From Dictyostelium discoideum (lineage: Eukaryota): a stretch of 64,000 nt of DNA. A model generated the notes under the pieces. That model did not search any database, had not been told where the DNA came from, and saw only the letters and a list, made by a program, of their open reading frames with translations. How positions within the stretch are numbered: position 1 is the first letter of the stretch; every line of letters begins with the position of its first letter. Of this stretch, positions 52,369 through 57,140 are shown piece after piece. The stretch covers positions 4,480,001 through 4,544,000 of the forward strand of contig CM000152.2 of the NCBI GenBank assembly GCA_000004695.1, written 5' to 3'. The position numbers were made by a program, and so were the translations under genes.

Positions 52369-55300
52369 ATGAAAAGGTTTCTTTTTCTTTTAGTTTTCTT
52401 TGTTTTATTATTTAGTAATAATGATGTTTTGGTAAGTTCTCAATTAACTCCCGACACAAGTGGCGGATCTATATCATTATCAATCGTCTATAAAAATCCA
52501 ATATTTAACTTATATCCAAAAATTTCATCATTAGATGTATGCTCCATCAATTATAATTTTTTGGTTGAAGAAGAATTAAAAACATATATTATTGACTTAA
52601 TTCAGTTTTCCCCTAATATTTCACCAATAAAATTAATTTTGAATAATAATTATAAAAGTTTATATTCATGTACCATTGACAAGGTTATACCAGGTAATTA
52701 TAACTTTAGTTTAATGGCGAGTTCTGAATCATCATCTTCAAATTTTACACTTTCTTTCAAATGTAATTGTAAGTAGAAATCAAATTTAATATTAAAATAA
52801 TTAATAATTAATAATTAATGATTTTATTTTGAAGCACTTACTTCTTTATTAAGTACAATGAGTATTAGTTTTTTGAAAGAACCATTTTATAGTTCTTCTT
52901 ATTTTTCATATTTAAAAGTTGAAGGTGTTGGAGATCATGTTTTCGACTATTTAGAATTTTTTGGAAATGGAATTTGAATGCCAACGTGGTTTCAATACTT
53001 TTTTAATTTTATGGGACTCATATTATATTTCTAAAGCAAAGTATTCAAATTGGACTATCAGTTTTAATTTTGCAAGTCACAATATAACAATTGAAACAAA
53101 ATCTTATTATAATGATGATAGTAATTATTAATAATAGTAATTAAAAATAACTCATTGAATACTATTTTAATTATTAATTCAAGCTCTTTTTTTTTTTTTC
53201 AATTATCTTTATTTTATAAAATACAGAAAATGAAATTTATAAGAATATAACCGATTTTAGTTATTATCTTGATAATGCATTTAACAATAATTCAATACCT
53301 TTTCAAGAATTTGGTCAAGAGTATAGACCTTTAGTAATGATTTCAGTGAATACAGAAGCAGCAAAAGATTTAATACAGCTTAACCTGGATTTATCTGGTT
53401 TTTACTCACCTTTCGTTCCAATAAAAGGAAGTAAAGGGGATTTGAAGTATTTAGGTTTTGTTCCATTAGGTGCAGTTTTTAATGGAAAATACAATTTTTC
53501 ATTAATTACATTAAAAGAATCCATTCGATATAGTTGTAAAACTGGAGGTATTTTCCAATTAATAATAAAAATAATAATAATAATAATAATAATAATAATA
53601 ATAATAATAATAATAATAATAATAATAATAATAATAATAATAATAATAATAATAATAATAATAATAATAATAATAATAATAACAACAATAATAATAAAAA
53701 TAATAATAAAAATAATAATAATAATAATAACAGTAAAATAGATTATTTATTAATATATTTTAATTTAAATTTTTTTTTTTAGATTTTAAAATTCCAAAAT
53801 TTGAGAATTTTAATATGACTATAGATTTATTGGAGACTAATAATCAACCGATATTTGAGGTAGAATTCAGTGTTTCAAACCCAAACTTAAATATTTTCCC
53901 ACATGCTAAATATACATCAGGTTATAAACAACTAATACTTGATTTCCCATTTGGATATGTACTTAGTCCAAACGTAAATTTCAAAAACTCTGTTGTTCTT
54001 TTTAGGATTAATAATACTTTAAATAATGAAATTTCAATAAAATCAACTGTCCACGATATCCTATATGAAAGTATATATATTAGTAACATTACAAGTAAGT
54101 TTTTAATATAAAAATTGGTTTGGTTTATATTAATATTATTTTTTCATTATTATTATTATTATTATTATTATTATTATTATTATTATTACTATTATTATTA
54201 TTATTATTATTATTATTATTATTATTATTGTTTAATATTATTAGATTATAATTCAAAACCCCAAAATTAATATCATATAAAATTATTAAGGTTTCAAGTG
54301 AAACTTTTTTATATATTTTAAAAATTAATTCAATAAATGGGTTGGATAAAATATTAATTTCTGGTATATTTAATTTTGGAATTGATTGTTTAATAGAGGG
54401 AGATATTTATTTGGGAACATATGAATTTGTAATGAATCCTATGTATGGTGCAGTAATTCAATTATTTGACACTTTAAATAAAATTGAAATCATTAAGAAA
54501 GATGATTTTATTTCCTTAGACCCTTTAACTCAATTTTCAAATACTCAAGATATGAATTTTAATTTTGGTAAATTTGATTATTTTAGATTAAATATAATAA
54601 TAATAATAATATTAATATATTTTTTTTATTTTTTAATTTTTATTTTTTTATAGATTTAAATAGTTTTAATAATATTACTTTTTTAATAAATGATTTAAAT
54701 TTAATCAATAATACAGTTTCAAATATTATGTATTTAAATTCAACTGATATACCAAGAGACTTACCAATGGTTTTGGGATTATCTGATCCAATCTCATTAA
54801 ATAGAGAAATAATATATCCTTTTTATTATAACTCAACATCAGATTTATTCTATTGCAAATTTATTATACCAAAAAACAATATATTTGGTGAAATTGATTT
54901 TAAAATCCTTACTCAATCAGATAGAGGTTATTTAAATACTTTTTTAAATTTAATTCCTAGTGGTTTTTTACCAAATAGTTTAAGAGTAAATCAAACATGT
55001 AGGTATTTTTAAATTTTAAAATAAAATTAATAATAATTGATTTATATATTTATATATTTATTTATTATTATAATTATTAGATTTAGATAATCAAGGACCA
55101 GTATTCAAAAAAATTGAAAGAATTGGTGTGAATCAAATTTTTTCAAATGTTAATGGATTAGGAGTTAAATCAAGATTAATAGGTTGGAATTTTTTTATTA
55201 AAGATGATTATAATGGTTTTGAAAGTGGATTTATAAAAGTTATTGGTTCAGTTGATAATTCACTTAATAGTTTTAATTTTACAAGTGAAGATTTTTCAAG

Positions 55301-56318
55301 TGGTGATAAATGGAGTGGTACTTATCAAATGCTAATAAACGTTTCTTATCCATGTATTTCTCAATCATTTATAACTACTCACGTTTTATTAAAGGATACA
55401 AATAATATAGAGAGTGAATTTAAATTATATTCCGAATTTGGGCCAAATTCAATTCAAAACCCATTTTTAAATTTTTATAATCAAAGTTTAGTTGGTATCT
55501 TCAAAAATGGAAAAAGTAAAGTGTATTTCAAATTTAACCTTTATAAATGATACAATTGCACATTATTCATGTTCAACAGAAATTCCACTTGGTTTTGGTA
55601 ATCCTGATCCAATTTTATTATCACTCTATGGTTTTATTGGTAATAGTGGTTTTTACAATGGTTTTTCAACATCAGATTTAATGAATCATAATTCTTACTA
55701 TATAAATACAACCATTTCATTTGGTAATACAATTATAAAATCAACTGGTTTATTCTATTCAGATAGTGATAGATTAGTTAATATTGGTAGAGAATTTGAA
55801 TCAACATCATTGGTTTTCATTGATTATAATGATGATGGGATGATTCAACAACAACAGGATTTTATAAATATAATGATGTTATAGATACAATTGAATCTTC
55901 TATAATCATTTTAAAAAATGTTAAACCAACTGAAAAGTCATTTTTTATAAAAGTTCAAAATTCAAATGGTAAAATTTCAAATATCTATAAAGTAATTCCA
56001 ATTTATTTTAATATTCATCCCTCAGTTAAACCAACTGAAACACCTTCAACAACAGTTAAACCAACTGAAACATCTTCAATAAATCCTCCACAATTATGTA
56101 TAGGTAATCCGATATGTGGTGGTAGCAATCAAGGTTATTGTGTTGAAAATGTTGGATGTATTTGTTATCCTCCATATGTTGGTACATCATGTCAATCAAA
56201 AGTTATAATTATTAATCCACCAATTATAAATCCAAATAATCCATCAACAAATTTAACTTTTAATGATGATGATGATGATAAACCATCATTAATTGGTTTA
56301 ATTTCGATTATATCTTAA
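52369..56318 (+). CDS. Dictyostelium-type cell-surface glycoprotein locus: a multi-exon gene or pseudogene with a signal peptide, Ser/Thr/Pro-rich KPTE repeats and a C-terminal EGF-like Cys motif. Exon-like blocks: 52369..52768, 53227..53547, 53783..54094, 54397..54567, 54654..54998, 55081..55515, 55580..55877 and 55884..56318.
   Basis: The N-terminus MKRFLFLLVFFVLLFSNNDVLVSSQ is a signal peptide. Well-supported introns are 53121..53226, 53548..53782 (spanning an (ATA)n tract), 54095..54396 and 54568..54653, with consistent phases. The C-terminal block contains CIGNPICGGSNQGYCVENVGCICYPPYVGTSCQ (EGF-like), then D5 and a truncated hydrophobic stretch LIGLISIIS. Several junctions cannot be made in frame (52834-53120 and 55877/55884), and the ORF ends TAA TGA in frame with the next block. 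Confidence 0.35.
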
Positions 56319-56336
56319 TGAGAATTAGGAATAAAT

Positions 56337-57140
56337 ATGGAAATTAAAAAAACTCATTTCTTTGAAAATTGGACTCAAACAAGCTTATCATATAATAAAC
56401 ATCATTATATTGCAAATATTAAAGGTACATCAAATATTACCATTGAAACTGAATGGTTTGATAGTTTAACAAATATTACATTTGCAAATCAAAAATTAAC
56501 AATGAATCCTCCAACTTTGAAATATAATATCAATATTACAAAATATGAATTTATTTCTAATATTAATTCACTTCAATTAGTTATTCAATCAAAACTATCA
56601 AAAAATTCAAATATTGATCATAGTATTTGTTCAGCTCAATCATTTGGGGAAACAACCTCAAATGATAATTCAAATTATATTCAATTATCAGTTGAAAAAC
56701 ATTCATTATATGGTCGTTTCATAAAAAGAGGTATAGTTGATAATAAAATCATTTCAATTAATAATGAACAATTAAATGATTTAAATTCTGAAAGTTCTTA
56801 TTATACATCAGAATCTCATATTGGTATAAATATACCTTGGTTTAAGGATTTAGTTCAATTAGATCCAGGTATGTATAGTTTTTATAAAAAAAAAAAAAAA
56901 AAAAAAAAAAAAAAATTTAAGATGTATATATTATATAGTAAATTATTATATAAATACTAATTATCTTTTTTTTTATTTTTTTAATTAAAAATAATCATAA
57001 AAATTATTAGATTTTTCTGTATTATTAGATGGATCATCAACAAACTCAATATGCAAAGATGGTCACAGTTTATCAAAAAAAAGCGTTAATTGGTGTTATT
57101 GTAGGCTGTGTTGGTAATTATCGTTGTAGCATTTATTGTT
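56337..57140 (+). CDS. Tandem partial paralog or continuation of the surface-protein locus, with a N-glycosylation-rich ectodomain. A C-terminal TM exon (ALIGVIVGCVGNYRCSIYCCKI) lies at about 57080..57140.
   Basis: ORF 56337..56868 has many NxT/S sites and no signal peptide. It is in the same frame as the upstream block, separated only by TAA TGA. A GTATGT donor sits at 56869. A downstream AG acceptor at ~57078 gives a clean TM + stop exon in phase 1. Confidence 0.3.

Follow-up and report, generated by a model that had tools for sequence, protein, structure and literature searches.

ComC (the D. discoideum "communication mutant C" protein) is the namesake of the Pfam domain ComC_SSD; it is described as a protein that "has EGF domains, S+T, group 4 only" (PMC4931340), and the phenotype of its mutant is aberrant aggregation (PMC2873529). 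The dictyostelid ComC-like family is large, with 867 clusters at 50% identity, and its members are typically 1,350–1,400 aa long. One intact member on chromosome 3 of AX4-type D. discoideum, DDB_G0278531/ACTFIT_010171 (1,368 aa), has the order DUF7035-DUF7034-DUF7949-ComC_SSD-TM and also scores for DUF7743. This protein is the closest intact AX4-type paralog of a locus on chromosome 3 of strain AX4, which lies at 52369–57203 on the plus strand (as do all features given below) of a 64-kb window, meaning the whole stretch of DNA that we analyzed. The two are alignable over nearly their full length at 40% identity; with only 40–45% identity, the paralog did not arise by recent duplication, and mere redundancy between the two is improbable. 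With ComC itself, the locus shares a signal peptide and transmembrane (TM) segment, an EGF-like module, and the ComC supersandwich domain. We conclude with high confidence that 52369–57203 is an unprocessed pseudogene without a close paralog. Its ancestor was one gene with 8 exons, which encoded a ComC-like type I membrane glycoprotein of ∼1,395 aa, and the lineage to AX4-type D. discoideum then gained three nonsense codons and six frame-breaking indels.

Intact orthologs are found in two assemblies under the D. discoideum label, both divergent: ACTFIW_001290 (KAM9958425.1, 1,395 aa; L001) and ACTFIR_000332 (KAM9959263.1; L006). Both share with AX4 the order tRNA-Leu, gene, Sod_Cu, phosphorylase, as well as the 8-exon/7-intron structure, the domain order, and 95.5% nucleotide identity across exons. 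Unlike the AX4 copy, with its 3 stops and 6 frameshifting indels, their ORFs are uninterrupted. P0001 on L001 occupies 8 exons separated by 7 canonical introns of 74–268 nt, and the projection onto L006 is an open frame of 1,398 codons. All 7 GT-AG introns are the same in AX4, L001 and L006. The original prediction had proposed paralogs elsewhere in the genome as a guide to the ancestral frames; here the syntenic orthologs reveal them. The several well-formed introns it had noticed are real. The ortholog lineages differ by 5–9% at silent sites, so that the genes cannot be treated as alleles of the usual kind within one species. Protein identity to P0001 is 87%, a value due to the genome-wide divergence of P0001's lineage. 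We considered a hyper-polymorphic allorecognition-type locus and rejected it, as silent divergence in the gene (0.064–0.072) falls within that of its neighbours (0.046–0.094).

The ancestral protein comprised, in order, a signal peptide, DUF7035, DUF7034, KPTE repeats, the EGF-like DUF7949, the ComC supersandwich domain, and a TM helix. Exon 1 (52369–52768), projected from L001 exon 10001–10400, is intact and holds the start codon, signal peptide and N-terminal region. The signal peptide foreseen at the start of the locus is MKRFLFLLVFFVLLFSNNDVLVSSQ, read from the ATG at 52369 and called by eye; it is also conserved in L001 and L006. Exons 3 (53227–53547), 4 (53783–54094) and 6 (54654–54998) are likewise free of disabling lesions. 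The nine lesions, catalogued from a three-way alignment of AX4, L001 and L006, fall in exons 2, 5, 7 and 8, and those within the coverage of the outgroup L005 are all derived in AX4. In exon 2 (52835–53120), which also has in-frame indels of −3 and −9 nt, a TGA stop at 52975–52977 replaces the TTA (Leu185) that is ancestral in L001, L006 and L005, and a 2-nt deletion specific to the AX4 haplotype (CGTGTGG to CGTGG) has its junction at 52985/52986. A break had been suspected across 52834–53120, where no in-frame splice could be found; this region holds the stop and the deletion. Close to the 5′ end of exon 5 (54245–54567), a 1-nt deletion in a C-run (54259–54262; C4 in AX4 versus C5 in L001, L006 and L005) shifts the frame.

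Exon 7 (55081–56868), the counterpart of a single 1,983-nt exon in the orthologs, codes for DUF7035, DUF7034, the KPTE repeats, the EGF-like DUF7949, and ComC_SSD, and carries four lesions. A 188-nt deletion, with 2 nt of TG microhomology at its junction (55492/55493), removed ∼62 codons (DTIYLDF...PIVYM), covering the last part of DUF7035 and the first part of DUF7034, with a frameshift as well. The original prediction undercounted the breaks, having missed both this deletion and the one in exon 5. At 55838/55839, a 4-nt loss relative to L006 in a GAT/GGT repeat shifts the frame again (equivalently, +8 relative to L001, which itself has an in-frame 12-nt loss); a break had been correctly perceived here and misplaced to 55877–55884, which is the end of the wrong frame. 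Finally, TAA TGA at 56316–56321 stands for ancestral TTA AGA (Leu-Arg), two changes within 3 nt in a conserved SLRELG/SLRELD motif; DDB_G0278531 has a conserved SLRELD at this site. This is the in-frame double stop that had first drawn attention, and the ORF reported downstream of it does run from an ATG at 56337 with the frame unchanged.

Exon 8 (57011–57203, with the ancestral stop TAA at 57201–57203) encodes the juxtamembrane region, the TM helix and a short cytoplasmic tail. It is broken twice, by an additional nucleotide in an A-run (57075–57082; A8 in AX4 versus AAAAAAT in L001/L006) and by an 11-nt deletion (junction 57113/57114) in the GGALV region of the TM helix, which in the orthologs reads ALIGIIVGCVGGALVIIIVSFIVV. 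The exon near 57080 that had been taken for a clean TM segment plus stop is therefore frameshifted on both counts. Rather than a single C-terminal TM and tail in one continuous ORF, AX4 has an ORF broken nine times; the locus is therefore a dead, not a functional, member of the ComC-like family. The AX4 copy has accumulated these lesions, yet every splice site is retained: 7/7 introns are kept with GT..AG ends, and there is no poly-A or retroposition signature.

Frame-corrected translation of the AX4 copy recovers the family domains in Pfam. DUF7035 reaches 108.3 bits and DUF7034 reaches 57.1 (cut-off 27), versus 119.7 and 101.8 bits in the intact ortholog; the AX4 match to DUF7034 begins only at profile position 15, a consequence of the 188-nt deletion. 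The predicted KPTE-type repeats and EGF-like Cys module are both present, as three VKPTE motifs, with a 30-nt tandem repeat among them at 56023–56079, and a six-Cys match to DUF7949 (E 6e-12, 46 bits; cut-off 27). The ComC supersandwich domain 3′ of TAA-TGA (56337–56868, annotated in AX4 as DDB_G0281459) scores 43.6 bits (cut-off 24), and 48.2 bits in the DDB_G0281459 model. LIGLISIIS, first read as a truncated hydrophobic tail, represents no TM segment but the conserved beginning of this domain (SLIGLISIISLRELG in the orthologs). Searches found no sequence relative in PDB and no Rfam RNA gene within the locus. On the minus strand of the locus, the ORFs are short and translate intron microsatellites into low-complexity protein.

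The AX4 lesions recur in independent data, including the other D. discoideum sequences in which the original prediction had suggested looking for the stops. A separately deposited chromosome-level assembly (GCA_054883475.1, L002) is identical to AX4 over 52201–57300 but for two poly-A lengths, both outside coding sequence. Logan contigs L003 and L004 (SRR28564540, SRR28564543) cover 54208–56904 with 4 SNPs and 0 indels relative to AX4; they carry the 1-nt deletion in exon 5 and TAA-TGA, and match AX4 across the 188-nt junction. TGA 52975 is present in Logan contigs L007 and L008, from runs SRR26869267 (seen in 7 samples) and SRR28564541. L007 and L008 lack the −2 at 52985 and carry instead a +2 (TA) at ∼52893. 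Support for the exon 8 lesions is limited to the reference and L002, which are identical at both, and exact-product look-ups returned no match for DDB_G0281531 or the 40-aa exon 8 ORF. Common to all AX4-clade data examined are TGA 52975, the −1 in exon 5, the −188 nt, the −4 nt, and TAA-TGA; these lesions are therefore older than the split of those haplotypes. This mix of shared and still-polymorphic lesions is the pattern expected of neutrally drifting dead DNA. Intact syntenic orthologs and nine derived lesions, repeated in independent data, strongly support the suggestion that the locus belongs to a lineage-specific EGF/adhesion family and is in decay.

Pairwise dN/dS was 0.65 for AX4-L001, 0.53 for AX4-L006, and 0.34 for L001-L006 (Fisher p = 0.085, unpolarised). 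When polarised with the outgroup, the AX4 branch, with 14.7 synonymous and 42.3 nonsynonymous changes, was no faster than the intact-lineage stem, with 8 and 27 (p = 0.43); ω was ∼0.6–0.7 and ∼0.85, respectively, a difference that is not significant; exon/intron divergence ratios were similar as well. Thus, dN/dS gives no clear sign of relaxed constraint, and the gene is fast-evolving everywhere. On the AX4 branch, 57 substitutions were counted in the 992 outgroup-covered codons, which scales to an estimate of ∼75 for 1,310 codons; 3 nonsense changes among these come near the 6.1% that mutation free of constraint would produce.

Could the gene really be intact, with its breaks and stops being errors in the AX4 reference sequence or assembly? 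Two lesions do lie in homopolymers, the C-run and the A-run, which are common sites of Sanger and long-read error. However, the second assembly is base-identical save two noncoding poly-A tracts, short-read contigs from several runs repeat the −1, −188, −4, TAA-TGA and TGA 52975, and neither the 188-nt and 11-nt deletions nor three nonsense substitutions are error-type changes, which leaves this explanation vanishingly improbable. We give just as little credence to a functional gene whose non-canonical expression, raised at the outset as unusual processing, would rely on programmed frameshifting, readthrough of stop codons, RNA editing or unusual splicing. The retained start codon, signal peptide and 7/7 splice-site pairs, and a frame that stays open for 182 codons beyond TAA-TGA, are what such a gene would show, but its expression would take 6 independent frame corrections and 3 readthroughs, whereas recoding needs a single conserved site and the orthologs have continuous frames with none of these features. 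Moreover, the 188-nt and 11-nt deletions cost conserved domain and TM residues that recoding cannot recover, the additional frameshifts differ by strain and read set, and the sole frame closure found by annotators takes a 22-nt intron plus introns in conserved coding sequence. Since the lesions are repeated in a second assembly and in short-read contigs, and strains carry frameshifts of their own, both sequencing error and programmed recoding are excluded.

It is very unlikely, if slightly less so, that the locus represents two or three separate functional genes or tandem paralogs. Three protein models have been deposited from AX4, and DDB_G0281459 alone scores as ComC_SSD; nevertheless, the three are collinear, non-overlapping parts of one ortholog, not repeats of each other, and the segment after TAA-TGA that had suggested a tandem paralog is the ComC_SSD of the same gene, inside ortholog exon 7. 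One model, DDB_G0281457, terminates where its frame runs on into intron 1, each of the others begins at an internal Met with no signal peptide despite their extracellular Cys-rich, glycosylated domains, and tblastn shows no second copy of the gene in the 64-kb window. A comparably slim chance attaches to a dead full-length receptor from which a secreted N-terminal fragment of ∼180 aa (ATG 52369 to TGA 52975) is still made, with some activity. The ∼260 bp upstream, the ATG, signal peptide, exon 1, and the splice sites of intron 1 are all intact and conserved, but the +2 at ∼52893 in other strains lies 5′ of the TGA and would alter the fragment, a sign that it is not under constraint; no domain is recognisable in it, and a literature search by gene ID turned up no expression evidence. 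Internally initiated fragments may be produced from the locus. Our preferred reading remains that of an unprocessed pseudogene, and we infer that the AX4 locus yields no functional product.

The AX4 models DDB_G0281457, DDB_G0281531 and DDB_G0281459 are artefacts, each a piece of this one pseudogene. The locus looks gene-like because the promoter-proximal region, start codon and all 7 intron splice-site pairs persist, and because it still looks gene-like, annotators gave it three bogus protein models. DDB_G0281457 (Q54TX1; 135 aa; XP_640690.1) is the exon 1 ORF running on into intron 1. DDB_G0281531 requires three "introns", 0/3 of which are conserved: one of 22 nt, one of 167 nt that falls within conserved exon 7, and an extended one of 302 nt; DDB_G0281459 (Q54TW9; 212 aa) takes the internal ATG 56337 as its start. 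A literature search for the three identifiers found no paper, and they were absent from the supplements of the transcriptome and genome papers checked. The main value of our analysis lies in cleaner annotation. The reference proteome should no longer list these three "hypothetical proteins" separately but merge them into one entry marked as a pseudogene; at present they swell the tally of proteins with EGF-like or ComC domains and can lead analyses of variant effects or expression astray.

Upstream of the gene lies a tRNA-Leu(AAG) gene (43794–43875), conserved in four of four lineages, and downstream a Cu/Zn superoxide dismutase gene (57876–58331) serves as a synteny anchor. Between the tRNA and the pseudogene sits ∼8.2 kb of non-LTR retroelement DNA (43902–52106), with an ORF for Exo_endo_phos and RVT_1 and a poly-A end at 52077–52105. 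It begins 24–51 bp 3′ of the tRNA, ends ∼260 bp 5′ of the ATG, and is absent from L001 and L006. Its insertion as the cause of gene death is unsupported: ∼260 bp of native upstream sequence is left, and a causal link is not demonstrable.

A surface protein kept by sister lineages is thus missing from the standard lab strain, which is useful for strain comparison and unsurprising. We can speculate that AX4-type D. discoideum has undergone fixed loss of a ComC-family glycoprotein that two deeply diverged lineages labelled D. discoideum keep and that a third (D. cf. discoideum) has destroyed independently. If the protein acts in cell-cell adhesion or communication like ComC, this recurrent loss might be a sign of, or a factor in, the developmental incompatibility of cryptic lineages within the D. 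discoideum complex; alternatively, leftover fragments might have been co-opted as small secreted proteins. We consider this reading very unlikely. Kinship between ComC and the locus is based on the shared Pfam domain only, and a ComC-like function for the subfamily would be by analogy. The loss at the AX4 locus is ordinary gene death, and the locus is a clean, datable case of how genes are born and die within a very large family of dictyostelid surface proteins. Like unprocessed unitary pseudogenes in general, it has its introns, its ancestral position, multiple disabling mutations and an intact ortholog in relatives, and has no close functional duplicate; nothing sets it apart from them except the adjacent double stop produced by two changes within 3 nt (TTAAGA to TAATGA).

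Three-frame translation of 52300–57300, together with the ORF list, revealed an AT-rich, intron-bearing gene on the + strand, and protein searches matched it to DDB_G0281531 of AX4 (783 aa, chromosome 3) and to ACTFIW_001290 (1,395 aa) in the ACTFIW assembly (L001). ACTFIW_001290 is syntenic; downstream of it lie, as in the window, Cu/Zn-SOD, a 301-aa gene, glycogen phosphorylase and a terpene synthase. Mapped back onto L001, it resolved into eight exons separated by seven canonical GT..AG introns (74–268 nt) with an exact translation, and the copy in the ACTFIR assembly (L006; ACTFIR_000332) showed the same structure with an open frame of 1,398 codons. 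Ortholog projection onto the window placed exons 1–4 at 52369–52768, 52835–53120, 53227–53547 and 53783–54094, and exons 5–8 at 54245–54567, 54654–54998, 55081–56868 and 57011–57203 (all +). Most of the features described by the original prediction were found: a signal peptide at ATG 52369, VKPTE repeats with a 30-nt tandem repeat at 56023–56079, an EGF-like module, and well-formed introns, with 7/7 donor/acceptor pairs conserved with the orthologs. On the frame-corrected conceptual product (∼1,320 aa), Pfam identified DUF7035, DUF7034, DUF7949 (the EGF-like six-Cys module) and ComC_SSD. Intron lengths differ two- to three-fold among lineages (intron 3, 235 nt in AX4 versus 91 and 106 nt; intron 5, 86 nt in AX4 versus 268 and 158 nt), and introns 3 and 4 hold long (TAA)57 and (TAT)39 microsatellites (53560–53730 and 54128–54243).

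Compared with the two intact orthologs, the window copy carries nine lesions, all given here on the + strand. In exon 2, a TGA at 52975–52977 replaces an ancestral TTA (Leu185; lesion 1) and is followed by a 2-nt deletion at 52985/6 (lesion 2). Exon 5 has lost one nucleotide from a C-run near its 5′ end (lesion 3; 54259–54262). Lesion 4, a 188-nt deletion with TG microhomology at 55492/3, takes out ∼62 codons that reach from the last part of DUF7035 into the beginning of DUF7034. A 4-nt loss in a GAT/GGT repeat (lesion 5; 55838/9) precedes the in-frame TAA-TGA, which was found as described at 56316–56321 with an open frame following from ATG 56337; here TAA stands for TTA (Leu; lesion 6, 56316–18) and TGA for AGA (Arg; lesion 7, 56319–21). 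The Leu-Arg pair lost is part of a conserved SLRELG motif, which reads SLRELD in the closest paralog. Lesions 8 and 9 are a +1 in an A-run (57075–57082) and an 11-nt deletion within the TM helix (57113/4). Several in-frame indels accompany these lesions, and the frame shifts do not add up to a multiple of three. The frame breaks originally noted are real, although their coordinates were approximate and four additional breaks had been overlooked. At each lesion site for which it is informative, the outgroup copy from D. cf. discoideum (L005; GCA_054859205.1) is undamaged, which marks the lesions as derived changes of the AX4 lineage.

The lesions of the window copy are real. If sequencing error lay behind the frame breaks, they should not recur in other data; they do recur, in GCA_054883475.1 and, where covered, in Logan contigs, leaving error a very improbable explanation. 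GCA_054883475.1, a separately deposited, chromosome-level assembly (chromosome of 6,429,748 bp), matches 52201–57300 of the window base for base except for two poly-A length differences, both outside coding sequence. Logan contigs from SRR28564540 and SRR28564543 (54208–56904) show four SNPs in 2.7 kb (55052, 55321, 55455 and 56689) and no indels, and keep the TAA-TGA. Those from SRR26869267 (7 samples) and SRR28564541 cover 52338–53588 and have the TGA at 52975. These latter contigs lack AX4's 2-nt deletion and instead carry a different +2 (TA) at ∼52893. A mix of old lesions held in common and new, strain-specific frameshifts characterises a pseudogene under drift and is incompatible with a conserved recoding mechanism of any kind. 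The non-canonical processing entertained earlier, by which programmed recoding would keep the gene functional, is accordingly most unlikely. The pseudogene is polymorphic among AX4-clade read sets, with two haplotypes bearing different exon 2 frameshifts (52893 and 52985); the AX4 base is derived at 2/5 polymorphic substitution sites, 52431 (exon 1, polymorphic against the SRR26869267/SRR28564541 contigs) and 55455.

The AX4 annotation splits the locus into three models. DDB_G0281457 (135 aa) consists of exon 1 running on into intron 1, DDB_G0281531 spans from an internal Met (52967) to the TAA, and DDB_G0281459 (212 aa) extends from ATG 56337 to a frameshifted stop in exon 8. Three introns keep the frame of DDB_G0281531 open: an extended one of 302 nt, which bypasses the frameshift of exon 5; a 22-nt "intron" over the junction of the 188-nt deletion; and, within conserved exon 7, a 167-nt "intron". 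Tandem or independent genes, the first of which had been suggested for the block after the double stop, have very little probability: that block is the ComC_SSD portion of the same exon 7, tblastn found no second gene copy within the 64-kb window, and neither DDB_G0281531 nor DDB_G0281459 has a signal peptide though both are built of extracellular domains, which argues against a tandem paralog. We are highly confident that the locus is an ordinary case of an unprocessed pseudogene that has no close paralog. Its AX4 annotation is an artefact of gene decay, and a single merged pseudogene entry should take the place of the three reference "proteins".

In all lineages the gene is preceded by a conserved tRNA-Leu(AAG) (43794–43875 in the window). 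In the AX4-type genome only, ∼8.2 kb of non-LTR retroelement DNA, with an Exo_endo_phos + RVT_1 ORF and a poly-A end at ∼52105, sits 24–51 bp 3′ of the tRNA and ∼260 bp 5′ of the ATG; it is not present in L001 or L006. Such placement is typical of the tRNA-targeted TRE elements of Dictyostelium. A causal link between insertion and gene death is not demonstrable. The AX4-type genome alone also has ∼1.1 kb of additional DNA 5′ of the tRNA (42420–43773, versus 209 bp in L001), and 42420–52106 looks like a tRNA-targeted insertion hotspot. Matches to mir-7131 (RF03716) above the Rfam gathering score on both strands at 49779–49867 (93.8 and 93.1 bits) reflect a palindromic hairpin within this retroelement cluster.

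Silent divergence of the gene between the window and L001/L006 is 0.064–0.072, within the range of its neighbours (flanking SOD, 0.083–0.094; phosphorylase, 0.046). A hypervariable locus is thereby ruled out, and the 87% protein identity reflects a generally diverged lineage. The neighbouring-gene tree is (L005, (AX4, (L001, L006))). Between L001 and L006, dS is ∼0.025–0.03. Within-species diversity is well below the dS separating both from AX4 (0.046 for phosphorylase to 0.09 for SOD; window 57876–58331 and 60700–64000), so these assemblies, labelled D. discoideum, look like cryptic lineages. Against the intact copies, AX4 gives a dN/dS of 0.53–0.65; L001 against L006 gives 0.34 (p = 0.085). 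When polarised with L005, the AX4 branch (14.7 synonymous/42.3 nonsynonymous changes) was not faster than the intact-pair stem (8/27; p = 0.43), and exon/intron divergence ratios were likewise similar. Constraint on the family's evolution is weak. The AX4 branch has three nonsense changes among ∼75 estimated substitutions (57 counted over outgroup-covered codons, scaled up to all 1,310), near the 6.1% expected without selection. In L005 (11100–15400, 10001–10456) the same gene is independently broken by an inversion (segment matching L001 12515–13190), a ∼950-bp deletion (L001 14150–15103) and several frameshifts, none of them common to AX4. The SOD gene of L005 is inverted relative to its neighbours.

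No PDB relative was found by sequence. The closest intact AX4-type paralog, DDB_G0278531/ACTFIT_010171 (1,368 aa), has 40% full-length identity and the same domain order. Its AX4 model (1,029 aa) is ∼340 aa shorter N-terminally than ACTFIT_010171, the model from the newer assembly, and also falls short of the usual family length of 1,350–1,400 aa; it is probably truncated. PMC10755179 reports a stop-gain in DDB_G0278531 in one clone from experimental evolution. Used as query in an exhaustive HMMER search, this paralog matched 867 clusters at 50% identity (375 below 1e-30), mostly of 1,350–1,400 aa, indicating that the ancestral gene was a typical representative of a large family. With nine lesions against intact syntenic orthologs, the earlier reading as a decaying member of an adhesion/EGF family is strongly supported. 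The namesake of this family, ComC, is listed as an EGF-domain protein with signal peptide and TM, confined to group 4 (PMC4931340), and its mutant is listed with aberrant aggregation (PMC2873529).
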